Assembly: GCA_039818205.1 (NCBI GenBank)
Contig: JBCBUK010000001.1
Location: forward strand, 96,001 to 160,000
Length of the DNA stretch: 64,000 bases
Source of the DNA: Verrucomicrobiota bacterium
GTDB lineage: Bacteria > Verrucomicrobiota > Verrucomicrobiia > Opitutales > Cerasicoccaceae
Direction of reading: 5' to 3'
A program made the translations under genes and the position numbers. The notes under the pieces are model-generated. The model worked only from the letters and a program-made list of their open reading frames with translations, was not told the DNA's origin and searched no databases. Positions 39,638-62,894 of this stretch are shown here, piece by piece. Position 1 is the stretch's first letter. Each line of letters starts with the position of its first letter.

Positions 39638-39877
39638 CAAAAACCAGCAGATCCTAACCGGCCCGGTCGCCACTTAAAGCCTTCAACCTAGGCAACCCCT
39701 AGACTATCCCGAGATCGCCAAAATACTCCCCACAAGTTTACGGGGTATTGCATTTAGTACTAAGTTACCGGTATCGTTTTCGGTTGCATCAAGATTGTTT
39801 GATATCGATGTTTTTTGCTCATCATGCATAGTTCCTGCCATCAACACCTAACTGGGAAGGGCAACTATCGCCCATCC

Positions 39878-42607
39878 ATGATTAAAACCCTATCGAGCGT
39901 CGCGCTTACCCTTGGCCTAGTATGCCACGCGACCTATGCTGACACCCAGCGTCAGCTCCTGCCCCGCCTTGTCCCCGTCAACAACACTCAGCAAGTTTTT
40001 GAAAGCGAAGAGGCCTACCTAGTCATAAAGGTTAACAACGATGCTCATGTCGCAACCAATGACCTCTATTCATATTGTCCGCAACTTACCGCTCTCGCCT
40101 TAAGCCATGGCTTTGTTTTAGAGTCTCTCATCAAGGTTGATCCTGAGCGCTTACAAGCCCTCGGGGAACGCGGTGAAGCCCGTACCGGCAAAGAGCAAAC
40201 CAAGCTTAATACCTTTTTCCGGGGTGAGTTTGTCGAACAGCCTGCAATCGAAACGCTACAGCTTATTGCAGCAGCCATCGATGAACTCGAGACGGTTGAA
40301 TACTGCCATATCGCTTACAAAACGCTCATCCCCCCCGGCGCAGTGACCTCGGACACTCCGGACCTAACGGAATACCAAACCTATCGGAACGGCGAAGCAG
40401 GAGTAAATATTGACTATGCCTGGGACTTTGGAGCTGGCGGTTGGGGAGTCCGCCTGAGCGATGTGGAATTCTATTGGAACCTGGACCATGAGGACATCAT
40501 CGACGCCGGCATCCAGCAGGAGCCAAATCAAACCCCGCACCCGCTGACCCTGCAGTTTGTTCCTCATCACGGCCTTGGCGTTGTGGGAATTACCTCTGCA
40601 GTCCCCAATGAGTTCGGCATGACCGGCCTCGTCCCCGATGCCGAGGTATGGGTCTACCCAGAATTCACCATCGAAGGCGGTATTCGTCGCTTTGACGCCG
40701 TTGCGACCGCCATTGCAGACTCCCGTCCCGGGGATGTTGTCATGCTCGAGATGCAAACTCCCGGATTGACCGACGACCCAGCTGGCTTCGCTCCCGCGGA
40801 ACTCGAGTTGCCCCTGTGGGAAATTATTCGCGCAGGAACCGATGCGGGCGTTATTATCGTCGCAGTTGCGGGCAACGGAAATCAAGACCTCGATTCGCCG
40901 CTCTATGCGCCTTACATGGCACGCGGCGACAGCGGAGCAATCATGGTTGGCGCCGGAACACCCGACACCGAGCACAACCGATTGTTCTTCTCAAATTACG
41001 GAACTCGCGTAAACGCCCAAGGCTGGGGTTGGGATGTTGCCACTCTGGGTGAAGGCGACTTTATGATTTTTGAGGGTGACGAGAACCGCGCCTACACGAA
41101 CACCTTCAACGGCACCAGTTCGGCTACTCCGTTCGTCGCCGCAGCTTGTGTCTCGTTACAATCGCTTGCTCAGGAGGAACTCGGTCGACGCCTTTCTCCA
41201 GCGGAAATGCGCGATCTGATCACAACCACGGGAACCCCACAAGGAGACGGATTACACATCGGCCCGTTCATCAATATGAAATCCTCGATTGATGAGCTCC
41301 TGAGCCGCAACTGGGTTACCGCCATCAATTGCGGCGGTGAGGAGTTTATCTCTGCATCCGGAATCGTCTACGCTGAAGACACCGACTTTGACGGTGGATC
41401 GACGATCCAGGTGCTAGACGACATTGCCGATACACCTGATGATGCAGTCTTTGCTTCAGCGCGACAAGGCGAGTTCGAGTATGAGATCGAAGTCCCCAAA
41501 GGAGAATACGAGTTGGTGCTCCACTTTGCTGAGATCGCTGGTTCTCCCACGAGTTCGGTTACTGTTACTGCCGAGGGCGATACCATTGCCGAAAACCTCA
41601 ATATCGCAGATGAGGCTGGAGGCGCATTAACTGCGCTTACCTTGTCCGAGACTATTGTCATTCGTGACAAGGAGCTTGATCTTGAAGTCTCGGGCTTGGG
41701 TGCTTCGCTGTCGGGTTTCTATCTCCGTCCCGTTTCAGAAATAGTAGTAGCCGTTAACTGCGGCGGTAGCAACTACCGCTCTCGGAAAGGCATTACTTTC
41801 TCCACCGATAAATTCTACTCGGGCGGCAATAGCTTTGAGACCACAGACCGCATAAAGGAGACTGTTGATCAGCCAACTCATCAAACGGCACGTCAGGGCG
41901 AGTTTAGCTATAATGTGCCGGTGGAGAACGGTAGCTATGCCGTGGTCGCCCAATTTGCAGCAATTGATGAGACTCTCCTTGAAACCGATTCCATGACCCT
42001 TACCATCGAAGGCGATCCTGTCTTGGCCGACTTTTCCGTCATCGATTCGGCAAATGGAACCGACCGTGCCTATCGCACGGTATTGCCTGCCACCGTTACC
42101 GACGGAGTTCTGAGCCTGAAAATTGAAAGCACCAGCGGTAACGGCCAACTGAATGCTTTCTATATCAGCGAACTCGCTGAGGTTACGGTCGCGGTTAACA
42201 GTGGCGGCAGCTACTTGATCGATGACGACATCCTTTACTTTCCGGACTTTGGCTATACCGGCGGATCTACCTTTGGCCTACCAGCAAGATTTCTTGGGTT
42301 GTTCTTAAACTCCTCGGGACGTCAGGGAGATTTCAGTTATTCGGTCGATGTTCCCGATGGAGACTATGTCCTGACCCTAAATCTAGCGAATGCGAACGGA
42401 CATTTCGACCTAACAGTCGAAGGAGATGCGGTTCCGCTGGCCCGCCGAGCCCGCGGTGCTCGTAGCTTTGGCGCAGACCGTGAAATCGAAGTTCCAGTCA
42501 CCATCGAGGATGGTAACATCGATTTCCAGCTGGAATCGACTCGCCGAAGCGGAGCGAAACTCAACTCCTGGAAGTTGGTTGCGTTCAACAGCTCTGACAG
42601 AAGTTAG
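39878..42607 (+). CDS. Secreted S8 subtilase with three C-terminal malectin-like domains
   Basis: Triad motifs LSDVE, HGLGVVG, FNGTSSATP; AGNG oxyanion Asn; three AINCGG/AVNCGG/AVNSGG...RQG.F.Y...V..G.Y repeats. Confidence 0.88.
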   Translation: MIKTLSSVALTLGLVCHATYADTQRQLLPRLVPVNNTQQVFESEEAYLVIKVNNDAHVATNDLYSYCPQLTALALSHGFVLESLIKVDPERLQALGERGEARTGKEQTKLNTFFRGEFVEQPAIETLQLIAAAIDELETVEYCHIAYKTLIPPGAVTSDTPDLTEYQTYRNGEAGVNIDYAWDFGAGGWGVRLSDVEFYWNLDHEDIIDAGIQQEPNQTPHPLTLQFVPHHGLGVVGITSAVPNEFGMTGLVPDAEVWVYPEFTIEGGIRRFDAVATAIADSRPGDVVMLEMQTPGLTDDPAGFAPAELELPLWEIIRAGTDAGVIIVAVAGNGNQDLDSPLYAPYMARGDSGAIMVGAGTPDTEHNRLFFSNYGTRVNAQGWGWDVATLGEGDFMIFEGDENRAYTNTFNGTSSATPFVAAACVSLQSLAQEELGRRLSPAEMRDLITTTGTPQGDGLHIGPFINMKSSIDELLSRNWVTAINCGGEEFISASGIVYAEDTDFDGGSTIQVLDDIADTPDDAVFASARQGEFEYEIEVPKGEYELVLHFAEIAGSPTSSVTVTAEGDTIAENLNIADEAGGALTALTLSETIVIRDKELDLEVSGLGASLSGFYLRPVSEIVVAVNCGGSNYRSRKGITFSTDKFYSGGNSFETTDRIKETVDQPTHQTARQGEFSYNVPVENGSYAVVAQFAAIDETLLETDSMTLTIEGDPVLADFSVIDSANGTDRAYRTVLPATVTDGVLSLKIESTSGNGQLNAFYISELAEVTVAVNSGGSYLIDDDILYFPDFGYTGGSTFGLPARFLGLFLNSSGRQGDFSYSVDVPDGDYVLTLNLANANGHFDLTVEGDAVPLARRARGARSFGADREIEVPVTIEDGNIDFQLESTRRSGAKLNSWKLVAFNSSDRS

Positions 42608-49809: not shown

Positions 49810-51795
49810 ATGTCGCAACATTTTCTTTTCTCCTTCGTTTCTACCAATCTCCTGCGAGTCGCAGCTCTGAGCTACTTCATCGCTTTTTCCTACCTCGCAT
49901 CCTTGTCGGCCGAGCCGATTGACTACTATGCTCCACATCCTTTTGGAACCGAAGGAAACGCCAACCAATGTGATAACACTGCAATTGGGAAATGGTGGAT
50001 CGAGCGTGATGGTGAATGGGGCCACGATAAGGATGGTCGCAAATGGTTCCTCGAGAGAGAGCGCGAAAAGGCCTTGGCATTCGTTCTATACACTCATGAC
50101 GATCGCGTCCTCAAGCTAACCGCACAAACCTTTCCCCTTTACCCGGAAGAACCAAAAACGATCACGCTCGAATTTTTCCGAGATGGCCAGTGGCAACCCG
50201 TCGCTCAAGAACCGATTCAATACCCGGGCTGGTCCGCACACTTTCGAATCGAGAACTGGGATAACTCGCAGGACGTTCGCTACCGAGCACGCCTCGGCGA
50301 CCTTTCCAGCTACGAGGGATTAATTCGCAAAGACCCTGCAGATAAAGAATCCATCGTTGTTGCCTCCATGTCATGCAACTCGCCCAAGGATAAGACCCGG
50401 TATGAACGCATGGAGCTCACAAACAATTTGATAATGCATGACCCCGACTTGTTGTTCTTCGCTGGCGATCAAAACTACACGCACGATGAGCACACTTACG
50501 GTTGGCTCATGTGGGGAGTTCACTATGCAGCCGTGACCAAAGATCGGCCCACGATAACCATCACCGATGATCATGACATTGGGCACGGAAACCTCTGGGG
50601 TGCCAACGGAAAGGTATCACTGATCCAAGGCAATGCCGACGGCGGGTACAAATACCCAGCCAGTTTCGTCAACATGGTGCAGCGATGCGAAATGTATCAC
50701 CTCCCTGATACATTTGATCCGCAACCTATTCTTCAGGATATCTCCGTCCACTACACTGACCTGACACTCGGCGGCATCAGCTTTGCCATCCTGGAAGACC
50801 GGAAGTTCAAAACCGGTCCGTACGGACGCATTCCCCAAATGGGACCGCGCCCCGACCACATTAACGATCCCGACTATGACCGGTCCGGGGTTGACCTCGC
50901 AAACCTGAAACTACTTGGCGACCGTCAACTGAAGTTTCTCGATGCGTGGGCTCGCGATTGGTCGGACAGCTCGATGAAAGTGGTGCTCTCACAAACGGCA
51001 TTCTGTGGGGCCGTCCATCTCCATGGTGATGCATCTAACCGCCTCCTCGCTGACCTTGATTGCAACGGCTGGCCGCAAACTGGTCGCGACCGCGCCGTTC
51101 GCGCGATTCGCCGGGTCAAAGGAACGCATCTTTGCGGCGATCAACATTTAGCAACGGTATTGAAGCACGGTATTGACGACTTTCGCGATGGTCCGATGGC
51201 CTTCACCGGGCCCGCCCTTGTGAATACCATCTACGGGCGCTGGTGGTGGCCGTTAGACGAAGCAGCTGGTGGTGGCGCACCAATCGACAGCCCCCTGCCT
51301 TGGGTGGGCGACTACGAAGACGGTTTGGGTAATAAGATCACGATGTTCGCCTACGCAAACCCCGAATACCAAAAGACCAAGGAGCTCAACAGCGACCCCG
51401 CTCGCGAGAATCGCGGCGATGGCTATGGCTTGGTTCGATTCAACAAGGCGACTCAAGACATCACCTTTGAATGCTGGCCGCGATTCGCCGATCTATCGCA
51501 GGGTGATGCGGCTCAGTTCGAAGGTTGGCCGATCACGTTCAACATGGACCTAAACGATGGTCGAGAGCCAATTGCTCATCTTCCTTCCGTCATCCTGCCC
51601 CATGCCAACGCGGTCGTCCAGCTAACCGACCAAGCTACCGGCGAACTCATCTACTGCTATCGCCTTCAGAATCAAGCGGGCGAGGCCTATGAGGCACCGA
51701 TTTTTACCAGCAGTGCCTACCAGCTCGCAATTGGACAAAGCCAGCCAGACACCGTGCTACTCGACAACATAAACATCCTCGTCGAAGACCAATAG
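49810..51795 (+). CDS. PhoD-like metallophosphoesterase
   Basis: MSCN, DPDLLFFAGDQNY, DDHDIG, EDRKFK, D.NGWP, CGDQH metal-binding motifs. Confidence 0.75.
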   Translation: MSQHFLFSFVSTNLLRVAALSYFIAFSYLASLSAEPIDYYAPHPFGTEGNANQCDNTAIGKWWIERDGEWGHDKDGRKWFLEREREKALAFVLYTHDDRVLKLTAQTFPLYPEEPKTITLEFFRDGQWQPVAQEPIQYPGWSAHFRIENWDNSQDVRYRARLGDLSSYEGLIRKDPADKESIVVASMSCNSPKDKTRYERMELTNNLIMHDPDLLFFAGDQNYTHDEHTYGWLMWGVHYAAVTKDRPTITITDDHDIGHGNLWGANGKVSLIQGNADGGYKYPASFVNMVQRCEMYHLPDTFDPQPILQDISVHYTDLTLGGISFAILEDRKFKTGPYGRIPQMGPRPDHINDPDYDRSGVDLANLKLLGDRQLKFLDAWARDWSDSSMKVVLSQTAFCGAVHLHGDASNRLLADLDCNGWPQTGRDRAVRAIRRVKGTHLCGDQHLATVLKHGIDDFRDGPMAFTGPALVNTIYGRWWWPLDEAAGGGAPIDSPLPWVGDYEDGLGNKITMFAYANPEYQKTKELNSDPARENRGDGYGLVRFNKATQDITFECWPRFADLSQGDAAQFEGWPITFNMDLNDGREPIAHLPSVILPHANAVVQLTDQATGELIYCYRLQNQAGEAYEAPIFTSSAYQLAIGQSQPDTVLLDNINILVEDQ

Positions 51796-51909
51796 GTACG
51801 GACTCAGGCCCATAGTTGGGAGGATGAGTTGGTTGCGGGTTTTGTATCTTTTATGTTACGCGGAAAGTGATCCTTGTCGCGATGCCCACATCCCACTAAT
51901 CGAAGGCCC

Positions 51910-52413
51910 ATGAAATCACGTTATTACGCGATTGTTGCGGTTGCCACATTGGGACTCGTCATTGGCTTATCTGGAAGCAATCGAGCCTCTGGGAACACTA
52001 GCGACCTAGAGGCAAGCTTCACGCCCAAGGAAAAGGAACTCGCTTCTTACATGGCCGAGCTCCAGGTGCTGAGCCACAAACTGGGTCTATCGATCGATGC
52101 CGATAACGAACCGCTCATCAAATTTTACCTTCACGAGTCCAAAGTGAAAATCGAGGAGATTCAAAATGAGTTACCGGAATACGAGGGCGTACCCGTGGCA
52201 CTCTATATGGACCGTATGGCATGGCCCGCCTACAAGAGCCTCGACCAAGCGCTAGCATCGAAATCTGGATACAACTCGAAGGCGGTTAGAGAAGCGTATC
52301 GTGTGTTGATCAACTCTTGCAATGCGTGCCACATTAGCTCCGAGCACCCATATATCCGCATCAAACACAATAAGTCGAATCCTTACCTACAAGACTTCGC
52401 CGCTCAAGATTGA
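51910..52413 (+). CDS. Exported monoheme c-type cytochrome (cytochrome c'-like helical bundle)
   Basis: N-terminal hydrophobic segment; single C-terminal CNACH. Confidence 0.75.
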   Translation: MKSRYYAIVAVATLGLVIGLSGSNRASGNTSDLEASFTPKEKELASYMAELQVLSHKLGLSIDADNEPLIKFYLHESKVKIEEIQNELPEYEGVPVALYMDRMAWPAYKSLDQALASKSGYNSKAVREAYRVLINSCNACHISSEHPYIRIKHNKSNPYLQDFAAQD

Positions 52414-52418
52414 TTGGT

Positions 52419-53462
52419 ATGAAACCGTATCCTTTAAGATTAGCTTTGCCGCTCGGAATGGTCGCGTTACTCGTCCGGCCAACTCCTGGGATTGCCCAGG
52501 AAGTTACCAACAATCGACCGCATATTTTGGCAATTAAGTCAGAGTTCATCGCCAACCGTGAAGAATCTACCATCGTGAACTCCTTGGGCTTCATGGTCGA
52601 AACCGACGGTTTTCTTCTCTGCTGCTACGAACAGATCATCGACCCGGCAAGCGGCGAACTATCCCATTCGATCCAAGTCATCTCGCCTGAGATAGACGAC
52701 TACGAACCACAACCGGCCAGCATTATTGGTGTTGAGCCTACCTTGAATTTTGCGGTCCTCAAAATTGACACCAGCGACGAGCTTCGCAAAAGCCAACTTG
52801 CTGATGAGATTCTACTGACTAAATACGATGCCGTCGGCACCTATCGACTCCGCGACGAAGAAATTGCCGATATCGAAGGCGAATTTCTCCAAATGAATGA
52901 GCTCGAGTGTTACCAACAAAGCCTTACTGGATCGATGATGAAAGCACGACTCGGTCTCGACCAATCAAGCTTTGGTGCCCCGGTTTTTGATGCGAGCGGT
53001 GAAGTCATAGCGGTCTACACTGGCTATGAGCCGATAGACCCATCGTTGGATGAAAACGAAGAGCAAGGCGACTATCTGTTGCCAATTACCTTGGCCAACA
53101 CAGTTTACCAAAGCATCAAAGAACGCCAGAGTCTCGAGTCTCCCTGGACCGGATTTTCGGTTAGTCGCCTTAGCGACGAGGAAAGATCTATTTTCCCACT
53201 CAACAATGGACAGATCAAGGGAGGGATTCGCATTGAACATATTTGGGAGGGTGGCCCTGCCGAAGGGCTCGGAATCCAATCTGGAGACATCCTCGTTAAG
53301 TTCGCTCACAATCCTGTCGAATCCGTCGGCGACTTTCAAAAATGGCTCTATCTTTATGGCGTCGGTCAATCCGTGAAACTGTATCTGATCCGCGACCGCA
53401 AAGAACTCGTCATCATCGAATACACGATCGAAAAACGCCCGGATTGGGCGCGTCCTGAATAG
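52419..53462 (+). CDS. Trypsin-like (S1C/HtrA) + PDZ protein with degenerate catalytic triad
   Basis: SLGFMVETDGFLLCCYEQ (normally TNxH), NFAVLKI (normally DLAVLKI), SSFGAP (normally GNSGGP); PDZ GGPAEGLGIQSGDILV. Confidence 0.8.
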   Translation: MKPYPLRLALPLGMVALLVRPTPGIAQEVTNNRPHILAIKSEFIANREESTIVNSLGFMVETDGFLLCCYEQIIDPASGELSHSIQVISPEIDDYEPQPASIIGVEPTLNFAVLKIDTSDELRKSQLADEILLTKYDAVGTYRLRDEEIADIEGEFLQMNELECYQQSLTGSMMKARLGLDQSSFGAPVFDASGEVIAVYTGYEPIDPSLDENEEQGDYLLPITLANTVYQSIKERQSLESPWTGFSVSRLSDEERSIFPLNNGQIKGGIRIEHIWEGGPAEGLGIQSGDILVKFAHNPVESVGDFQKWLYLYGVGQSVKLYLIRDRKELVIIEYTIEKRPDWARPE

Positions 53463-53469
53463 AAAGAAA

Positions 53470-53499
53470 AAGGCCTCATCCCATGCGAGACGAGGCCTT
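53470..53499. terminator. Terminator between convergent genes
   Basis: AAGGCCTC...GAGGCCTT with a preceding A run (U tract on the minus strand). Confidence 0.7.
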
Positions 53500-53523
53500 C
53501 CCAAAGTAACCGAGCGACCACTC

Positions 53524-56500
53524 CTATTCGTAGTTCACTCGGAAGAAAATTTCGGGCTCAGTCGCGGGAGTTAGCATATAATCATACTCGATCTCCTCGT
53601 AGTCGCCAGTGGTGGTGATCGTCGCATCATTCTCCCAATTGGGAACTTCGATCCAGCTCATTGGATCCAGCGTTGTGCTTCGCTCGAGCTTTGCCTGCTC
53701 AGGAACGGAGCCACTCAGCGGCCGGAAAAAGCTGATTTGGACTTGCAAGGGCGCTGGCGAACCAAAGTCCAACAATGGGCCACTAACACCGTTGGCACTG
53801 GTGTTGGTTAGGAAGTGCAGATAGTTCGAGACGCCGTCAAAGTTGGGATCGGCATTGGGGCTAGTGTCCGTTCCTTCAAGCAACTGCTCGAGCGTGAACT
53901 GCTCGGCAACAAATTTTTCATAAGTGGTATCTCCTGCTGACAAGAAAATCGCATCGGCAAACTGATAGAAGTCGATGAATGGATTTCGGTTGAACTGCCC
54001 CAAGACATTACCACCACCAACATCGACGCCTTCATAGATCTGGTTATTTCTCTCAATTTCGTAGGCGGTCGGTGGAAAGGCCCGATTCCACTCCAGGAGT
54101 GTTGAAAGAATACCCATTTCACTTGATCCCGAAGGACTGTCCGAAAGCATCAGGTTCGTTGTCGAAGGATCCGATCCATCGTAGCGAACCATCATATAGA
54201 ATACGGCTCGTGCGACCATTCCCTTGTCCCGATCAAGTGGCTCCCAAGAGTTGGAATCGCGGGTTGATTCCGGCGCAAACGAATTCGATGTGGTTCCACC
54301 GGTACTTTCGTCGAATGGCAAATTCGAACGCAGGCTGTTTACATCTGACTGGCACGGGAACAGGCTATGCAGATCAGAATGGTCCGGTCCGTTGTCACCG
54401 ACACCCAGGCTGCGAGGCCACACGTGTTCGCGGTTCCAGCTACCCGAGCTTTTCGACAGCGTGGCCAACGAATATATCAGACGAATTGCACTGGAGTCGG
54501 ATTCATCCTCATCGATCACCCGGAATACATCAGGCGCATCGCCATAGCTCACTTGTGTATGGTCATCAATAATATCATGGAGCGCGTTTTGCAACGCGGT
54601 GCCCGTCAAGCCTTCGGCACTCTGGTAGTAAGACAAGAGCACCTGAGCATTCACCGGCACAAATAGATCGACGTAAACCAAGTGGTGGTCGGAAACCGCT
54701 GCAATGCCCTCAGGGCTTGGCCAGAACACCCCGGCGCCGGTGATCGTCTGATTCGCCGATGGCAATGCGTAGTCAACCCGTAGACCACCCACGAAGTCCG
54801 CGGTATCCGATGGCTCGGGACCACCAATACCCGTCGGAACAATCGTGTTATTGATCAGGGGCTCATCAGTAAACTGAAGCGCTGCGTCAGCCGTGCTGTC
54901 GCCCTCATCTGGATCCGCATTGTAGTCGCCCAGGATGACAAACTTTTCGCCGCCTGTGAAGCCACCCGTTGGACTTGGCGGTGTTGTGTTTCCGGCCGAA
55001 ATTAACTCGGCGTCATCGTAAATATAACTCTCACCTTTGATGTAATCGGCCCAGAATCGAATCTCATCGTGATTACGGCGGCCATTCTCATCAACGATGG
55101 TCGGATTCGCGAAATCGGTCTCCGTTCCATCGTCAAACGCCGGAGGCGTTGGGTGAGCGCAGAGGGCATGAATTGTTTCGGAACCCACCAAGATTGGCAC
55201 ATCCCAATGGCTTTTCGAGGACAGGCGAAATACATCTTGCTCAGCCGCTGTGTAGTAGTTGCCCGTGTCAAAATCGCCGTCGGAGTCCAGCGGATCCGGC
55301 GGCAGAAGATTATTGGGCATGTCTTTCCACAAGAACTGCTGGAACGTGCGGATGCCCGAGTAATTAATTGGATACTTTGACAGGAGCACCATGCCGTATT
55401 GACCTTCGTATTCGCCAAAGCCAAACGCATCATCGCCGTAAGCCTGCGAGCCCGGCGTCGAGACCACGGAGCCATTGTTGTCCAGGTCAAATCCTGAATG
55501 GACTCCCGTATTAACCGGCGCAAGATAGGTGTACCCATAGTAAACTGGGCTCTGACCATTCTGAGGAACAGCAAGGTAGTTATCCAGGAAGTTGCGCAAT
55601 GCTTGGCCACCCGAATCATAGTCAAATTCATTGATCAAGATAACGTCAGCGTTGTTGATCTGGATAATTTCGGCGACCTCATTGATGTGAGTGGTATTCG
55701 TGATCGAGGTCGCCGCGATGAGTCCATTTGGAAACTCCGCCATGGATCCGTTGAAGGTTGCGAAGCGGATTGAAGATGGCTCATTCACCACATCGCTATT
55801 GATATCGATCGTGACTGAATCGAACACATGTGAAACGCCGTCGAATGCCTGGATACGAATCACGTATTGGCTGCGCACGGAAGTATCGATATTACTTGCG
55901 TCATTGATCGTGATCACCCCTGAATTCGGATTGATGCGGAAAGCCGGACCGCCGCCGTTGGCCTCCATAAAGCACATCTGAGCGCCCTGGACCAAGTTAT
56001 TGGCCGCAATCAGACCGTCCGTTACCGAGTGGGCTTGGACGTTGAACAGGAACAAGGAACCGCCGGCCTCCCCAAACAGGCTTGAAACGTCTAAGATGCC
56101 CGATGATTCCCAGTTTCCGAGGTCATTGGTGCTGCCATCCGTAGAACCCAATGGAAGGACAACGTCGCGGCACATCTGGGCAATGCGAGTCGCTTGGCCA
56201 GTTGTGGAGTCGACCTTCCAGATCGAGGTTTCCTGGCCCGAGTTGGCAAAATCCGTCGTCGCCCCGCCAGCTCGGTCTTCTTGGATGTAGAGGAAATTGT
56301 CATCGGCCCAGTCGAGGTTGTCTGGATTGCGAAGTCCTTGCTCTGAGCTAAAGAACTGCCCACCACCCTGATCGTCCGCATCGTAAAGCAGATCGATATC
56401 GGCGGTCGGCGCACCCAGGTTTGTGAAATCAACATCAACGATGTAGATACAGCCCCATTTATCAAACGGGAACAAGTTGCCTCGCCCGGTGCTGGCGAAC

Positions 56501-59500
56501 GCAAAACGGGTCCCATCATTCGGGTCAGTCGCCAAGTCTTCCGGACGTGAGAACGAAAAGCCGCCGAGAGAATCCGATTCCGAACGCATGGTTGTGCCAT
56601 CCTTGTAACCAGCGGAATCATGGCCCGCTTGACCGGCCTGGGATACGTCCTGTGGATCAATCTCAACAAAGGTTCCCGCACGGTTTGATCCCGTGCCAAA
56701 AAACTGCTGAGGGGTGGTATTTCCATTGTCTGCCCGCCAAACATAAAGCGTTCCAAACTCCAAACCATTCCGTGCGAGGAAGCTACTCGAAGCCAGGCCA
56801 TCCTTATCCTTACCCTTCTCACCCACATAGAGGTAGAGTGGCGCGCTCTCAAGGTCATCGCCGAGCACAAATGCGACGTGAGTCGTCGTTCCCGTATCGA
56901 GTAGCGCAACATTCTCCCACGAGCCACGCCCCATTGCCGGTACCGCGTAAAAGCCTCCGCTGGCAACGTCGAGTGCCCAGACAGTGCCACCATGCGCACT
57001 ACCAAATGTCTTAGCGGCTTCCTCACCATTCATGTAGATGCGATCAGCAAGACCGCGACCAGCTCCGAAAGAATTGGCTTCGTAGAGCGAGCTGGAACAC
57101 ATCCGATCGAATCCTTCGGTCGCATGCCCACGCTCATTGATTTGCGACGCAGCCGTAACGATATTTCCACTGCGATCGTAGATTGTATCGTACGCGTATC
57201 CGCCATCAACGACGCTGCGGGTTGCCTTGTCGATATCCAAGTAGGAAACGCGCGCACCCGTAATCGAAGTTCCATTGGCCAGTTGATAGGCGTAGCCCTG
57301 TTCTGGTTCGATCTCGTGATTGAAGAAGACCCGGACGGTGTCCACATCCAGCTCGTAAGCGCCAATACCATCGAAGACACCCACGGGGCTAAAGTTTCCC
57401 GGTGTATTGGAATTCAGAGCACCAGAGGCTCCACTAACCGCATCGCCCGCGGTAAAGACCGGCGTAATCTTGAACCCAGCACCAGCAACTGGCTTCATTT
57501 TCGTTGGTGCCGCATCCCCGGCAAGAATCGCATATTGGAAACCTTCGTTCCCGACAATTGCGCTGTTCAAATCACCGATCACCGTGCCAGACAATGCGTT
57601 CTCGGATGTGGTAAAAGGCCCAACCGTGTCAATCGCTGGAGTCGTCGTGGTGAAATCATATGTCGTGGTATCAACAATGCCCGCGAAGCTGTTACCCGAT
57701 GTATCAAGCACGGCGCCGGCATCAACCTGAACATAGTAGGATGTGGCAGGATCAAAATTCGCCGCCGGATTGATTGTTAGTGTTCCGAGGTTGGCCGTAA
57801 CCTGCGGAGTGGTGACATCAATTGTTTCGACAATGCTGTTGTTGCTGGAACGGCGAATGGTTATGTTACCGGTTCCCTTCTGAATGATCTCGTTAAAGTT
57901 GATTAAGAGGTTGGAGTTTACGATGACTCCAATCGCGTCATCGGATGGGTCGAAGCTAGCAACAACCGGTGCAGTGGTATCCGTAACCGCCGATTCGGTT
58001 ACCTCAAGGGTCAAGCTTGGGTTGCCGGGATCAAAGGTATTGTTGAGACCCGAATAGGTAATCGCATCGAGCGAACCGACTGCGGCAATGATTATGCTGA
58101 ACTCGGCTCCATTCTGCAATTGCGCCAATAAGTCCGCTTCTACACCGCTCAAATCGAGAGTAAAGGTGTCTTGCGCCCCACCCGCTTGCGCCGTGTAAGG
58201 AAACTGGCCAAGCGATACCGGCGTGTAGGTAAACTCAGAATTATCAATCCCATTGATCACCGCCAAAGTATTCGTCAAGCCAGCATAGTTTCCATTGTAA
58301 GTATCGGTGGTTAGGAAGAATTCGACGGTCGCCGTCGCCGAAGTAAAGCTGCGGTCATTATGTGTCAGCGTTAAGTCCGCACTCACAATGTTGTCGATCT
58401 GCTGCGCACCGTTGAGCGCGAAGTCCAAATTGGAGAACTGGAAACTAGCGATACTGTAGATGGCGAACTGGCCTTGACCACTTCCCTCTGCATAGAATTC
58501 AGTTGAACCAATGTCGCCACCCGTTCGAATACCTGCCAGGGCAAACAGATCCTTGGTCGCCGTGGCATCCGGGGTCACTGCGCCAATATCCGTGAGGAAG
58601 TTCCAAATAGTTTTGTCACTGAATCCGGCGAATGCATTTCCGGCAGTATCTTCGATGGCGCCGCCGTCGATCTGAACATAGTAATCCGTGTTGTCGGCAA
58701 ACGTTCCAGTTGGGTCGACGGTTATCGTGTCACCATTGATACTAACCTTTCCGGAACCAATTGATACGGTTTCGAATGTTGAATCGTCGCCGGTAAGTTT
58801 GATGGTGATGTTGCCCGAACCAGCAGCAATATTTTCATTGAACGTGATCTCCAGGTTCGCGTTGTTTGCGACCAGGTTCGAATCATCGGCGGGTGAAAGC
58901 GTGACCAAATTTGGAGCAGTAAGATCCGGCGCCGCTGTGGAAAAATTCCAGCTCGTAGTATCGCTTATCCCGGCAAACGCATTAGCGGAAACATCTTCAA
59001 TCGCCCCGTTGTCGATCTGAACGTAGTAGGCAGTACTCGTATCCAAGTTGCTGGTCAGATCAATCGTCACCGAAGCGTTGTTGATGGTGACGTTACCGGA
59101 GCCAATCGCTACCGTTTCGACGACCGAGTCGTTAGATGCCAAGTGAATGACAATGTTGCCGGTGCCGGCTTGGACGTTTTCGTCAAATGTGATCACCAAG
59201 TTGCCATCGATGGCAAAGTCTGCCCCGTCATCAATGGGACTCAGGCTGGCAATTGAGGGCGGCGTCGAATCATTCGAATTCGTCGCCGAGATTCCGAGTT
59301 CAAGGTTTGGATTGCCAGGATCGAATGTGTTATTCAGGCCCGCGTAGGTAATCGAGTCACTCGCGCCAACAGGGGCGATAATGATACTGAACTCACCCTC
59401 CGCGTTCAACTGCGCCAAGACACTCGACTCAACGCCACTTAGATCCAGCGTGAATTGATCTTGAACACCACCAGTCGCAGCGGTGTATGCAAATTGGCCG

Positions 59501-61287
59501 AGTGAAACGGGCACGTTTGAAAACTCAGTATCGTTGATCCCATCGACTTCATTGGTATCAAATGCGAGCCCCGCAAAGTTTCCAGAAAACCCATCCACGG
59601 TGAGGAAGAATTCAACCGTTCCGGTAGGCGTCGTGAACGTACGGTCGTTGTGAGTCAATGTCAGCACCGCCGAGGTAATGTCGTTGATCGTTGCCCCAGC
59701 GCTCAACCCAAAGTCCGACTTCGTGAACGAGAAACTAGCGATACCGTATTCTGAGAAACTGCCGTTTCCATTACCCTGACCATAGTATTCAGTCGAGGAA
59801 GTCACGCCACCTGAGTGAATGGCACCCGCGGCAAACAAATCCTTGTTTGCGTTGTAAGTATTCGCAGTGCCAGAGAAGACAATATTATCGAAGCGGATCA
59901 ATTCAGAGCCCGCATTGTTCTGGATACGAATAACGAGCTGTAAGGTCGAGCCGTTGAGCCCAGTAACCGAACCGGTTCCCGAGGTGAACGCTTCTTGAAA
60001 GTCCGCAAAACTGGTTTCAGAGCCTCCATCCAAAACGTAGAATGCCTGCAGGTAGTCACCACTTTCGTGCCCGCCTGTTTCGCTGGCGTCAAAGGTGATC
60101 CCAACATTGGTAAAATCGTCAATATTCACGACCGGTGAACGCCAAATAACTTCGCCGTCGACGTCACGTGCTTCCATGACTTCCGAAACAACTTGAAGCC
60201 AATCGGTCGTGGCCGTTAGGGCACCACCCGCAACATCGACGGTCCAATCAACACCTGCGGTATCAACCGTGGGCGTTGGTCCGACGGCTCCTTTATTGTT
60301 TTGGCCGGTGAAGTCTTCGGCATAAATCTCGGTACCACTGCCGCCACCGAGAGCGACCGTAGTAAAACTCCAAGTAGTCGCATCGGCAATGCCCGCAAAT
60401 GCATTGCTTGAAGTATCTTCAAGCGCGCCACTATCGATCTGAACGTAATAGCCAGTGTCATTGGCTAGATCACTGGTGGGGTTAATTGTAACCGTATCAT
60501 TGGCAATCGATACATTTGCTGAACCAATCGCGAGTGTCTCGACGGTTGAGTCGTCGGATTGAAGTTTGACCGCGACATTACCGGTGGCAGCCTGGACATT
60601 TTCGTTGAAGATCGCGACGAGGTTTGCATCGACCGCAACACCAGTTGCATCATCAGACGGGCTAAGAGTCGAAATACTTGGCGGAGTAACATCCGCACCG
60701 CCGCTAGCCGTGAAATCAACCGTTAAAGCGGATACCTCGACTCCGTCACTCCCACCATTGACATTCACGGTAAAGCCAACGGTCAATTCGTCTCCACTGG
60801 TAACCGCCACATTCGAGAAGGCGTTTCCTACGTCGGTTCCAGCAGCTACGGGACCACCGAGAGCTGTCTCATCAAGGAAGATCGTTACCGGTGCGTTCGA
60901 ATTGATTTGGTAAAACCAAGTAATGCCCTCGGTCCCCACGTTGTTGAAAACATCGGTACCAATCGTGAGTGCCGAACCGACAATATCGACGGTTCCGTTG
61001 CTGGTAATGTTGATCGGGTCACTGGTGATCGTACCGTCCCCACCCCAATCTTGGACCCGCATAACGCCACCCACGGTAATAAACTCGTTTGTCGAGCCAT
61101 CGCTTGATGGAGAGCTGAACGTTAGCTCCCAGTTGGTTCCAGCGACCGGGCTGCTTTCCAAGGCGTCACCGGCGGTGTCGTGGGTACTGCCTTGGCTGGC
61201 CGTAGCAAAGTCTGCTGTGTAAATAGTCACGCCAAGAGTCCAGCTGGCGCAAAGAAGCGAGGTGAGTAGGAGAAGCGAAGTCTTCAT
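53524..61287 (-). CDS. 2587-aa secreted multidomain nuclease/phosphatase: 4x Big_5 Ig, PhoX-like (DUF839), cadherin-like, EEP domain, endonuclease I domain, C-terminal domain
   Basis: Big_5 repeats D.T.P...LSP.DD...L.I.FNE...YYVQID.GA..D...N.FAG...W.F.T; PhoX FNHE, RMCS, GEE, WEN, RPED, NPDN, IQED, WESSG, NVQAH; EEP ATFN, LINEFD, RLSSKSHWD, HPTPP, RNHDE, GDYN, SDH; EndoI WNREHVWPRS, DLHSL, NSLRSN, KGMVARA.FYM..RY, NRNPFID. Confidence 0.9.
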   Translation of the reverse strand: MKTSLLLLTSLLCASWTLGVTIYTADFATASQGSTHDTAGDALESSPVAGTNWELTFSSPSSDGSTNEFITVGGVMRVQDWGGDGTITSDPINITSNGTVDIVGSALTIGTDVFNNVGTEGITWFYQINSNAPVTIFLDETALGGPVAAGTDVGNAFSNVAVTSGDELTVGFTVNVNGGSDGVEVSALTVDFTASGGADVTPPSISTLSPSDDATGVAVDANLVAIFNENVQAATGNVAVKLQSDDSTVETLAIGSANVSIANDTVTINPTSDLANDTGYYVQIDSGALEDTSSNAFAGIADATTWSFTTVALGGGSGTEIYAEDFTGQNNKGAVGPTPTVDTAGVDWTVDVAGGALTATTDWLQVVSEVMEARDVDGEVIWRSPVVNIDDFTNVGITFDASETGGHESGDYLQAFYVLDGGSETSFADFQEAFTSGTGSVTGLNGSTLQLVIRIQNNAGSELIRFDNIVFSGTANTYNANKDLFAAGAIHSGGVTSSTEYYGQGNGNGSFSEYGIASFSFTKSDFGLSAGATINDITSAVLTLTHNDRTFTTPTGTVEFFLTVDGFSGNFAGLAFDTNEVDGINDTEFSNVPVSLGQFAYTAATGGVQDQFTLDLSGVESSVLAQLNAEGEFSIIIAPVGASDSITYAGLNNTFDPGNPNLELGISATNSNDSTPPSIASLSPIDDGADFAIDGNLVITFDENVQAGTGNIVIHLASNDSVVETVAIGSGNVTINNASVTIDLTSNLDTSTAYYVQIDNGAIEDVSANAFAGISDTTSWNFSTAAPDLTAPNLVTLSPADDSNLVANNANLEITFNENIAAGSGNITIKLTGDDSTFETVSIGSGKVSINGDTITVDPTGTFADNTDYYVQIDGGAIEDTAGNAFAGFSDKTIWNFLTDIGAVTPDATATKDLFALAGIRTGGDIGSTEFYAEGSGQGQFAIYSIASFQFSNLDFALNGAQQIDNIVSADLTLTHNDRSFTSATATVEFFLTTDTYNGNYAGLTNTLAVINGIDNSEFTYTPVSLGQFPYTAQAGGAQDTFTLDLSGVEADLLAQLQNGAEFSIIIAAVGSLDAITYSGLNNTFDPGNPSLTLEVTESAVTDTTAPVVASFDPSDDAIGVIVNSNLLINFNEIIQKGTGNITIRRSSNNSIVETIDVTTPQVTANLGTLTINPAANFDPATSYYVQVDAGAVLDTSGNSFAGIVDTTTYDFTTTTPAIDTVGPFTTSENALSGTVIGDLNSAIVGNEGFQYAILAGDAAPTKMKPVAGAGFKITPVFTAGDAVSGASGALNSNTPGNFSPVGVFDGIGAYELDVDTVRVFFNHEIEPEQGYAYQLANGTSITGARVSYLDIDKATRSVVDGGYAYDTIYDRSGNIVTAASQINERGHATEGFDRMCSSSLYEANSFGAGRGLADRIYMNGEEAAKTFGSAHGGTVWALDVASGGFYAVPAMGRGSWENVALLDTGTTTHVAFVLGDDLESAPLYLYVGEKGKDKDGLASSSFLARNGLEFGTLYVWRADNGNTTPQQFFGTGSNRAGTFVEIDPQDVSQAGQAGHDSAGYKDGTTMRSESDSLGGFSFSRPEDLATDPNDGTRFAFASTGRGNLFPFDKWGCIYIVDVDFTNLGAPTADIDLLYDADDQGGGQFFSSEQGLRNPDNLDWADDNFLYIQEDRAGGATTDFANSGQETSIWKVDSTTGQATRIAQMCRDVVLPLGSTDGSTNDLGNWESSGILDVSSLFGEAGGSLFLFNVQAHSVTDGLIAANNLVQGAQMCFMEANGGGPAFRINPNSGVITINDASNIDTSVRSQYVIRIQAFDGVSHVFDSVTIDINSDVVNEPSSIRFATFNGSMAEFPNGLIAATSITNTTHINEVAEIIQINNADVILINEFDYDSGGQALRNFLDNYLAVPQNGQSPVYYGYTYLAPVNTGVHSGFDLDNNGSVVSTPGSQAYGDDAFGFGEYEGQYGMVLLSKYPINYSGIRTFQQFLWKDMPNNLLPPDPLDSDGDFDTGNYYTAAEQDVFRLSSKSHWDVPILVGSETIHALCAHPTPPAFDDGTETDFANPTIVDENGRRNHDEIRFWADYIKGESYIYDDAELISAGNTTPPSPTGGFTGGEKFVILGDYNADPDEGDSTADAALQFTDEPLINNTIVPTGIGGPEPSDTADFVGGLRVDYALPSANQTITGAGVFWPSPEGIAAVSDHHLVYVDLFVPVNAQVLLSYYQSAEGLTGTALQNALHDIIDDHTQVSYGDAPDVFRVIDEDESDSSAIRLIYSLATLSKSSGSWNREHVWPRSLGVGDNGPDHSDLHSLFPCQSDVNSLRSNLPFDESTGGTTSNSFAPESTRDSNSWEPLDRDKGMVARAVFYMMVRYDGSDPSTTNLMLSDSPSGSSEMGILSTLLEWNRAFPPTAYEIERNNQIYEGVDVGGGNVLGQFNRNPFIDFYQFADAIFLSAGDTTYEKFVAEQFTLEQLLEGTDTSPNADPNFDGVSNYLHFLTNTSANGVSGPLLDFGSPAPLQVQISFFRPLSGSVPEQAKLERSTTLDPMSWIEVPNWENDATITTTGDYEEIEYDYMLTPATEPEIFFRVNYE

Positions 61288-61399
61288 TGGAGATCAAAAA
61301 TGTCGGCGGAAAATTGAAACGATATTGTGGCCCGAGTTGAATGCCTGGCCGTGATCGTGAAATTCAGGTGAAAGTTGCGATGCGATCCTTCAGAAAACA

Positions 61400-61431
61400 C
61401 TCATGGCCGCTAATCGCTTAGCGGCCATGAG
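61400..61431. terminator. Perfect 14-bp hairpin between the PEP-CTERM gene and the giant nuclease gene
   Basis: CTCATGGCCGCTAA-TCGC-TTAGCGGCCATGAG; followed by TGTTTT on the minus strand. Confidence 0.75.
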
Positions 61432-61456
61432 GCATGTAATTGTGTGTGCTGTCGGG

Positions 61457-62185
61457 CTAGCGGCGACGACGACGGATGGAGTAAGCGAGGGCGCATACGC
61501 CAAGGATCAAACCAACCGTGCCTGGCTCAGGAACCACGACCGCGTTTGGAGAGCCAATTGAAGAGATCGCTACCGTTGGATCGACATCAAAACTGGTGCC
61601 TGGAACCGCTGCGCCGGAGATGTTGTAAACGTCCGAACCTGCTGGATCGTTAATCGCGAACCACGCATCAGTTGCGCCATCGCGGAAAATCACCTGTGGC
61701 TCGTCGCCAGTGTATGCGAAATCCTGACCTCCAAGCTCCGTGCCGATCAAGTTCGCTTCGTCACCAACGCTGTCTGGAACACCGATTGCGTCAAAAATCG
61801 TTCCCAATGAAGAAACGTCAAGGCCGATGCCGTTATCGTTCGGGTCGATGTCAGTGGTGCCAATTGTTCCGGTGAAATCGGAAGTCAAAACGAATGTCAT
61901 CGAAGGATTCTCGAAGTCAGGAACCGAAACAACGAGAAGGCCATCGGCGTCGAAGTTACCGGATACCTGAGTAGCGCGATCAACGACACCAACAAAGGAG
62001 CCTGGATCCGCTTCTAGCGAAAGGACCCAACCGCTGAAAGCTGCCAAGGCAGTGCCTTTGAGCTCGACGTCTGTGTTCGCAGGATCGCCTCCGGTTGGAT
62101 TCGGGAAGAGTTCGTTAAAAACTTGAGCGTTTGCGGAAGTTGTGAGAACCGCAGCAGCTGCAATGAGTGATAGATGTTTCTTCAT
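61457..62185 (-). CDS. PEP-CTERM protein with lamin-tail-like N-terminal domain
   Basis: Signal peptide; VFNELFPNPTGGD...VELKG; SIGSPN; VPEPGTVGLILGVCALAYSIRRRRR. Confidence 0.9.
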   Translation of the reverse strand: MKKHLSLIAAAAVLTTSANAQVFNELFPNPTGGDPANTDVELKGTALAAFSGWVLSLEADPGSFVGVVDRATQVSGNFDADGLLVVSVPDFENPSMTFVLTSDFTGTIGTTDIDPNDNGIGLDVSSLGTIFDAIGVPDSVGDEANLIGTELGGQDFAYTGDEPQVIFRDGATDAWFAINDPAGSDVYNISGAAVPGTSFDVDPTVAISSIGSPNAVVVPEPGTVGLILGVCALAYSIRRRRR

Positions 62186-62894
62186 AATTTAGTCAGTAGG
62201 TCTTTTGAAAATTCGCTCTCAGTAAACGGTTTGTTTAGAACGATACAATTCCTGCAGTGTAAAAGGTCGGTCACACTCGACCCATTCGCGTAACACACTT
62301 CCAAACGGTCCTAGCTCGCGACTTAATCCAATGTTACAATCACGGAATAAACACACAGCTTCGAGCGTCTCAATTGGTGGCTAGGCACGGGTAAATCGAT
62401 CCCCCTTGAACCCAGTATCGATCTTCACGCGGACAAATTTGATAAACGAAAACGCTCCTGCGTAATCCTAATATACGATCCGCTTATACGACATGACGAA
62501 ATTTGACAAAAATGGAGAATTACAAATCCCAATAGGTCACAAATTACTCCTTAGGAAAACCGGGCTTTATCCGATAACATCGATGCAATTCGCGAAATAG
62601 ACTTTCGAAACGATCGACCAACGATCCTTTCAATAACCCCCTGATTAATAAACAGTTAAATGAAATTCGCTTAGAATTCACGGAGATCCCACCATCTTTC
62701 GCCAGACGCAAACTTGAAAATTATTCACAATCCCACCTTCATACTGCCAGCTAAGGTGATATGAAGTTCTCTGTATATAAAGCGGAAATTTCCCACGTCT
62801 CTCCCAACGCGTCCCCCTACGCGTATAGACAATTTTCCGTATTCATTGAGTCACCAGGTTTCCACTGTAAATCCCACCCTAGATCGTCACCCAA

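Follow-up and report, generated by a model that had tools for sequence, protein, structure and literature searches.

The subject of this analysis is a single gene in a 64,000-nucleotide (nt) stretch of a Verrucomicrobiota genome of the family Cerasicoccaceae (GenBank assembly GCA_039818205.1, contig JBCBUK010000001.1, positions 96,001 to 160,000), hereafter the window. The gene is an intact open reading frame (ORF) on the reverse strand, and its 2587-amino-acid (aa) product carries three catalytic domains, placed by Pfam and predicted folds in the order PhoX, EEP and endonuclease I from the N- to the C-terminus. From the domains, their order, residue conservation, distribution, and the motif and neighbours seen in relatives, we infer with moderate confidence that the chain is exported under phosphorus (P) limitation and turns nucleic acid into inorganic phosphate (Pi), the nuclease acting first, EEP probably second and PhoX last, through co-localisation rather than channelling. 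The same three domains recur in the same order in 86 of 120 homologs (the best 120 of 239 matches), and a further 15 of the 120 have PhoX only. An initial annotation of this DNA had already proposed the three domains and intact active sites; both were borne out by Pfam, predicted folds and residue conservation, and the domain coordinates agree with the re-derived ones within about 30 nt. Of the 22 residue positions checked, 20 are identical in all 86 homologs with the full fusion; E1325 is kept in 85 of them, and D1478 is invariant in alignment A1.

When the whole protein was searched, Pfam reported four Big_5 repeats (E 1.4e-70), EEP (PF03372) and Endonuclease_1 (PF04231), and missed PhoX. 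The Endonuclease_1 match covers aa 2228-2439 (E 3.2e-28, 99.5 bits against a cut-off of 25), and the modelled nuclease part superposes on endonuclease I of Vibrio cholerae (2VND) with Z 16.3 and a root-mean-square deviation (rmsd) of 2.6 over 163 aligned residues. The EH motif (E2287, H2288) and the Asn metal ligand (N2317) are invariant in 86/86 homologs, and the Asn region aligns to the Vibrio enzymes. The EndA/DNase I equivalog NF011716 scored 29.2 bits against a curated cut-off of 372, so the domain falls outside that equivalog. Its closest plasmid-borne relatives are Streptomyces and Bacillus proteins named "endonuclease" or "ribonuclease" (37-42% identity), and it contains one Cys. Bsn-type extracellular RNases and endonuclease I of Bacillus, compared here by family, also belong to PF04231 but are stand-alone proteins of about 30 kDa.

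The PhoX domain (PF05787) scored solely once its region had been excised, at 47.2 bits against a cut-off of 24; likewise, searches of the Protein Data Bank with the single sequence missed PhoX and profile searches found it. The PhoX model has a pLDDT of 92.4, and its top Foldseek match is P. fluorescens PhoX 4A9V (E 2.7e-19), the next unrelated propeller following at 9.7e-6. In the VIA comparison, PhoX gave Z 25.3 over 418 residues (rmsd 3.8) and DFPase Z 23.8 over 270 residues, Z by itself barely separating the two. A profile alignment to 3ZWU equates E1458, D1478, R1581, E1583, D1656 and D1671 with PhoX E273, D292, R385, E387, D479 and D494, numbered along the 3ZWU chain; R385 and D292 are named also in the accessible part of PMC11098088. 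The same source describes Psip1 of marine picocyanobacteria, likewise a divergent Fe/Ca phosphatase of PhoX fold from low-P waters, as having Lys for R385 and lacking D292, so that the fusion PhoX, which keeps R1581 and D1478, is set apart from it by the residues described there (PMC11098088). The likeness to P. fluorescens PhoX (4A9V/3ZWU) thus extends to the six-bladed propeller, six ligands aligned by sequence and the top fold match, but that enzyme is stand-alone, shares only 16-18% identity and belongs to proteins predicted to be Tat (twin-arginine) substrates, whereas the fusion PhoX sits between the two halves of a cadherin-like domain and follows a Sec-type signal. No twin arginine occurs ahead of it, Tat export being a typical and not a defining trait of PhoX. 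The invariant E1325, C1397, E1422/E1423 and E1727 are likely the remaining Fe/Ca/phosphate ligands, assigned by expected order without superposition to what we take to be E90, C179, E194 and E532. By family, the domain is predicted to be an Fe/Ca phosphomonoesterase.

The EEP match (PF03372) covers aa 1864-2201 (E 1.9e-20, 74 bits against a cut-off of 24.5). All eight motif residues are kept in 86/86 fusion homologs, where they presumably have the roles usual for the N/E/H/DxN/D/DH motif. In a model of EEP, nuclease and tail together, the EEP part resembles DNase I-like folds with Z up to 19.5.

Homologs with named carriers come from Verrucomicrobiaceae, Prosthecobacter, Luteolibacter and Akkermansiaceae. 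Among 401 Verrucomicrobiales genomes, a set that includes one (G403) chosen because the fusion is present there, 15 one-frame cores and 5 more cut by contig ends were found. Across the phylum, 0 of 400 other sampled genomes had the fusion, and 25 had single domains. That the gene is a relic whose domains are dead, or a chimera created by assembly, is scarcely credible. Such a reading could draw on the PhoX miss in the whole-protein Pfam search and on the absence of the fusion from all five congeners, four of them at least 96% complete, but the same order recurs in 86 homolog clusters and 15 complete genome copies, the catalytic residues are conserved, and one contig of the marine metagenome run X1, possibly the source sample, spans 53183-62500 with zero differences within the gene. 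A chimera is in fact refuted by the independent genomes with the same fusion.

The window copy stands away from the Verrucomicrobiales copies on the EEP and PhoX trees, where it groups with homologs P0001 and P0002. A branch with support 76 has the fusion PhoX domains on one side; the fusion nucleases form one long, weakly supported branch. The fusion EEPs fall into two groups and form a single group in 0% of 200 bootstrap trees; one origin was nonetheless not rejected (p-AU 0.208), and two origins are therefore hinted at by the tree and not established. At 0.52-0.61, the G+C content at third codon positions (GC3) of the locus is close to the genome-wide mean (0.595), and composition thus gives no hint of recent transfer.

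The fusion is not an isolated case but belongs to a family of giant phosphatases whose domains have been shuffled. This genome itself holds a 3271-aa paralog with two PhoX domains, EEP, 5'-nucleotidase and choice-of-anchor I (L148:4762-14574; G000:C17:58761-68576), its gene divergent from imelysin and di-haem oxidoreductase genes. In the 4419-aa homolog P0048, the entire PhoX-EEP-nuclease unit lies within a longer protein also bearing PhoD domains. The giant multi-phosphatases of cyanobacteria and the Planctomycetes-Verrucomicrobia-Chlamydiae (PVC) group, the paralog included, share the CBM96-like, Big_5, split-cadherin PhoX and EEP modules but, in place of endonuclease I, carry 5'-nucleotidase, choice-of-anchor I, PhoD or phytase. 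The literature searched yielded no characterisation of them. Nor was any description of the fusion found, in a search that most subscription papers lay beyond and that did not cover supplements. It is apparently an undescribed form of known P-scavenging systems. The initial annotation knew of no characterisation of the triple fusion, and the literature searched agrees; given 86/120 homologs and a shuffled family, the architecture is nevertheless less unique than was implied there.

The link to phosphate limitation was examined with two matrices, a Verrucomicrobiales matrix trained solely on 29 pstS upstream regions and a nearer-relatives matrix trained on 31, one too-short locus having been dropped from each set (L124 and L163). 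The consensus of the former is AATGTGAC-N5-CGTCA. Scored with the pstS matrix, 18 fusion upstream regions reached a median of 9.8 bits, where 94 neighbouring genes had 4.9 and shuffles 4.5. For the 15 non-redundant regions the mean best score was 10.85 bits against 5.07 +/- 0.76 when shuffled; none of 300 dinucleotide shuffles attained the observed mean. De novo motif discovery in these regions gave the same half-sites with an 11-nt period, 73-84 nt upstream in 13 of 15; an 11-nt period is a trait of the Pho box. In stand-alone EEP genes the motif was not seen (5 of 7 scorable; mean 3.0 versus 4.6 bits). The pstS upstream regions compared (L118-L147, L151-L177) suggest a candidate Verrucomicrobiota Pho box, of TGTGAC-N5-CGTCAC type in Verrucomicrobiales and GTCAC-N6-GTAAC type nearer the window's genome.

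Neighbouring genes in the relatives point the same way. With 32 of 112 neighbour ORFs scanned, 10 of 18 relative loci had another phosphoesterase-domain gene (8 loci, with PhoD, choice-of-anchor I, 5'-nucleotidase, phytase-like or metallophosphoesterase domains) or a DUF3419 plus methyltransferase pair (5 loci). DUF3419 is presumably BtaA, encoded by a betaine-lipid gene. The btaAB genes are described as P-stress lipid genes in the accessible part of PMC4796936. Three of the 18 loci (L104, L106, L108) have a small ECF-sigma-like gene between another giant phosphatase gene and the fusion. The window's genome carries pstSCAB-phoU and a PhoB-like regulator. Judged by the motif and neighbours in relatives, the predicted link of the fusion to phosphate limitation is well supported.

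Under such limitation, the endonuclease would cut extracellular DNA or RNA into oligonucleotides, EEP would probably shorten these or open the remaining diester ends, and the Fe/Ca PhoX would strip terminal phosphates for uptake by Pst. The gain would come from keeping three activities together near the cell or particle on a long Ig/CBM-like scaffold, and not from direct channelling. EEP is probably the middle nucleic-acid step of the chain, and it is the least certain one.

Several observations weigh against this proposal. The top fold matches of EEP are tied among uncharacterised EEPs, DNase1L3, TDP2 and sphingomyelinase (Z 19.5-16.9, 10-18% identity), and NCBIfam gave no ExeM/Xds subfamily match at E<=1 bar one chance match. 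In 19 of 120 homologs, and in the paralog as well, PhoX and EEP are present but the nuclease is not. The domains are strongly acidic (EEP, for example, has 13 K+R versus 53 D+E), and the EEP-nuclease-tail model, at pLDDT 81.7, has a pTM of only 0.57; neither observation points to a channel or a fixed geometry. According to the accessible part of PMC4714964, V. cholerae can dispense with PhoX alone when growing on DNA. As to regulation, kinship among the relatives makes the motif statistics overstate independence, and the window's own site is marginal: with the nearer-relatives matrix it scores 9.4 bits, ranks 212 among 3999 ORFs and is matched by 64 of 2000 shuffles, and its interval gains just 3.7 bits with the Verrucomicrobiales matrix. 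With the nearer-relatives matrix the site nonetheless scores like pstS of the same genome (9.8 bits, rank 179), and the paralog reaches 10.3 (rank 140) and the phoB-like gene 13.7 (rank 30); an order-level matrix that ranks the genome's own pstS 179th of 3999 is not selective genome-wide. The window's candidate site is thus no more than suggestive of Pho control. A pstS-type site of 13.7 bits (rank 31 of 3999) also lies upstream of a 16,254-aa ORF of this genome (G000:C1:377972-426736, reverse strand).

The main alternative, which we hold doubtful, is that the protein is a P-regulated toolkit whose domains act in parallel on different substrates, with a two-step path from nuclease to PhoX and an EEP that attacks non-nucleic phosphoesters such as phospholipid head groups or cyclic or inositol phosphates. 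The existence of a PhoX-cadherin-EEP core that lacks the nuclease and bears other add-ons (5'-nucleotidase, choice-of-anchor I, PhoD, phytase) favours this, as do the sphingomyelinases among the top EEP folds, the two tree groups of fusion EEPs, and Indioceanicola, where an EEP of the same type is fused to a phytase-like domain and adjoins a phoX gene. Against it stand the gap between EEP and nuclease, which is held to 7-14 residues in 86/86 homologs, the single EEP origin that was not rejected, and the identity of the three superfamilies with the V. cholerae set.

The sequential conversion of nucleic acid to Pi thus remains our preferred reading, and it has parallels in studied bacteria. The YhcR and YfkN proteins of Bacillus subtilis are built from other domain families than the fusion. 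As is proposed for it, they are large, secreted, anchored multi-activity enzymes that reclaim phosphate from extracellular DNA; YhcR is an endonuclease that seems to act as a 5'-nucleotidase too, and YfkN is a trifunctional nucleotide phosphoesterase, but both are sortase-anchored, and no PhoX, EEP or His-Me domain is named for them in the accessible parts of the sources (PMC11458576, PMC3222306). A YhcR-like OB domain was sought in the whole fusion protein, and no OB-type Pfam match was found. V. cholerae, as far as the accessible parts of the reports go, grows on DNA phosphate by means of the separate enzymes Dns (EndA type), Xds and PhoX/UshA/CpdB (PMC4714964; PMC6085458). This pathway also combines an EndA-type endonuclease, an EEP nuclease and PhoX to obtain Pi from DNA under P limitation, but the genes and compartments are separate and the main phosphatases are UshA and CpdB. 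Moreover, Xds is an ortholog of the EEP nuclease ExeM (PMC4714964; PMC6085458), a type to which the fusion EEP has no NCBIfam match.

The remainder of the chain is mostly scaffold. From the N-terminus it consists of a leader, a module without family, a Big_5 repeat, a second module, a CBM96-like module, two Big_5 repeats, another CBM96-like module and a fourth Big_5 repeat, followed by one half of a cadherin-like domain, PhoX, the other cadherin-like half, EEP, endonuclease I and a tail (Table 1). The four Big_5 repeats had been described beforehand as an Ig stalk; the repeats are there, but they do not form a single stalk, since two CBM96-like modules and another module interleave. Most relatives (72 of 120 homologs) are shorter, at about 2000 aa, and have two Big_5 repeats and a single CBM96-like module, so the N-terminal part of the window copy is expanded. 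CBM96-like copy 2 has ESM Atlas feature matches to PF24517 clusters at 0.92 and 0.91, with 144-147 features in common, which is a lead. The N-terminal module, the second module (module B) and the tail gave no Pfam or credible NCBIfam match.

The two cadherin-like halves are contiguous in one homolog (P0114, with the C-half at 10 bits), the sole intact example found, while 97 others have either one propeller, with a gap of 485-538 aa, or two, with a gap of about 1100 aa, between them. On this sequence evidence it is most likely that the PhoX propeller was inserted in a loop of a cadherin-like domain. At the N-terminus, the secreted nature proposed for the protein agrees with a predicted Sec-type signal peptide, read from sequence, and a Tat-like pattern was found in the leader of 0 of 86 fusion homologs; export of the chain is likely on the strength of this leader. 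The C-terminal tail, also noted earlier, proved to be a domain common to many proteins of the genome: its hidden Markov model (HMM) matches 44 ORFs at E<1e-3, and 40 of the matches end no more than 60 aa from the C-terminus. We infer a candidate verrucomicrobial sorting signal.

Such adhesion-like modules (Ig, cadherin-like and CBM96-like) would also suit a main role in remodelling extracellular DNA in biofilms or on particles, for detachment or to reach polysaccharide, phosphate being set free as a by-product. The position of the window within a polysaccharide-degradation region, and the action of EEP and EndA nucleases in biofilms elsewhere, as reported in sources accessible in part, would fit. 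This role is nevertheless improbable in view of the pstS-type motif and P-stress neighbours in relatives and the full conservation of the PhoX residues.

Table 1. Features of the fusion gene and its surroundings, with positions in the window.
Feature	Position	Strand	Basis
PhoX-EEP-endonuclease I fusion gene, 2587 aa	53524..61287	-	ORF, Pfam, order recurring in 86/120 homologs
Predicted Sec-type signal peptide (about aa 1-19), without twin arginine	61231..61287	-	Read from sequence
Big_5 Ig repeat 1	60352..60690	-	Pfam and module comparison
CBM96-like module copy 1 (putative binding)	59272..59850	-	Paralogous to copy 2; no Pfam match
Big_5 Ig repeats 2 and 3	58588..59271	-	Pfam and module comparison
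CBM96-like module copy 2	57988..58566	-	ESM Atlas feature matches; no Pfam match
Big_5 Ig repeat 4	57640..57987	-	Pfam and module comparison
N-half of split cadherin-like domain	57511..57639	-	Homolog comparison
PhoX six-bladed propeller	55954..57480	-	Pfam on excised region, profile alignment, predicted fold
C-half of split cadherin-like domain	55792..55944	-	PF00028 at 21 bits, below cut-off; homolog comparison
EEP domain with N1846, E1887, H2045, D2121, N2123, D2172, D2200, H2201	54658..55776	-	Pfam, conservation, fold
Endonuclease I (His-Me) domain with E2287, H2288, N2317	53938..54645	-	Pfam, conservation, fold
C-terminal helical and Ig-like tail, candidate sorting domain	53527..53934	-	Tail HMM; Ig-like fold, Z 8.1
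Candidate Pho-box-like site, two TTCAC half-sites 11 nt apart, 85 nt upstream of ATG	61355..61372	-	Nearer-relatives matrix
Terminator-like hairpin between PEP-CTERM gene and fusion	61400..61431	-	14-pair stem; 3 such sites versus 1.9 expected regionally
PEP-CTERM protein upstream, probably separate transcript	61457..62185	-	Hairpin between; no homolog in 18 relative loci
HtrA/DegQ-like trypsin and PDZ protein without catalytic triad, fusion companion	52410..53462	+	Pfam, DegQ alignment
Small CxxCH cytochrome c-like gene, fusion companion	51874..52413	+	Cytochrome-type clusters, co-occurrence
Remote PhoD-like metallophosphoesterase, 661 aa, not a conserved partner	49810..51795	+	Transitive homology

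Upstream of the fusion, the candidate site sits just after the terminator-like hairpin. A conserved partnership with the PEP-CTERM gene beyond it was considered and rejected: phmmer and tblastn found it in 0 of 18 relative loci, one of which (L031) has an unrelated-looking PEP-CTERM gene there. On the other side lies the PhoD-like gene, whose product has no Pfam PF09423 match of its own. The protein shows GD, DDHD and GDxH motifs and can be aligned, at E 2.5e-76, along the stretch of a second ORF of this genome that is positive for PF09423. It is homologous to the middle of a 1416-aa ORF (G000:C10:127816-132066) and was not found in the five congeners. The initial annotation took this neighbour as a sign of a P-scavenging island, which had to be abandoned: the gene is absent beside the fusion in 18/18 relative loci and has no matching upstream site with the order-level matrix. 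The connection to phosphate limitation survives through the pstS-type motif and the neighbours in relatives, and not through PhoD. The rest of the window encodes mostly sulfatases, fucosidases and lyases. The polysaccharide-degradation region (1677-45665) includes at least five sulfatase-domain genes, two alpha-L-fucosidases, a PL8-type lyase and a GH2 enzyme, together with two DUF4955 proteins, a sodium:solute symporter and PEP-CTERM genes; a 930-aa subtilase with two malectin domains is encoded at 39815-42607 on the forward strand.

Two small genes, cytochrome c-like and HtrA-like, overlap each other and converge on the 3' end of the fusion. In the HtrA-like protein, a DegQ alignment shows the Asp and Ser positions of the triad replaced, and the displayed homologs lack the His motif throughout. 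For neither gene of the pair was a characterised family found. Among the 401 genomes, 27 have the triad-less HtrA gene, namely 18 of 20 with the fusion and 9 of 381 without, although kin are not independent, and in 6 of 18 cases it lies in the fusion locus itself. It was found in 0 of 45 relatives of the window's genome and in 0 of 5 non-verrucomicrobial genomes carrying this PhoX clade; because of the latter, it is not a general partner of PhoX. In 16 further HtrA-like regions the neighbours are often purple-acid-phosphatase-like, EEP, PhoX or btaAB-type genes, which makes the pair a companion of P-scavenging genes generally and not of the fusion alone. The pair's upstream regions bear the pstS motif (mean 10.8 versus 4.8 bits, 0 of 200 shuffles; 22 of 27 scorable). 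At another locus (L215:2254-7074), HD-domain, HAD hydrolase, FAD oxidoreductase and DUF5690 genes adjoin the pair, a cluster that we take to be like a phosphonate-catabolism cluster.

Complex prediction gave the cytochrome and HtrA-like proteins a score of 0.46 against 0.00 for the best control, with contacts agreeing at least 43% and partner pLDDT of at least 80. Of 157 solved pairs, 116 attained the mark applied, as did 2 of 215 mismatched pairs, but at scores of 0.60 or below only 18 solved pairs and both mismatches did so; the prediction thus lends weak support to binding of the cytochrome c-like protein to the triad-less HtrA. A chaperone or iron-loading role for the pair is conceivable as a hypothesis. 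The more ambitious proposal is a portable Verrucomicrobiota module in which one chain takes nucleic acid to Pi with an undescribed EEP oligonucleotidase in the middle, and a periplasmic complex of the co-regulated cytochrome c-like protein and triad-less HtrA, dedicated to this task, folds or iron-loads Sec-exported Fe-phosphatases. Taken whole, this is unlikely.

Database records label the fusion proteins just "endonuclease I" or "Ig-like domain-containing protein", and phosphatase surveys may therefore miss them. Dissolved DNA and RNA are a phosphorus pool that studied bacteria mine with several separate enzymes, and since these three superfamilies are joined naturally in the fusion, any gain in Pi capture from tethering can be tested directly. 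The fusion also provides a context for finding the substrate of a widespread, uncharacterised EEP subfamily. Finally, it has yielded a candidate Verrucomicrobiota Pho box and a co-inherited pair of cytochrome and pseudo-protease, the latter bearing on how iron might be supplied to a Sec-exported PhoX.

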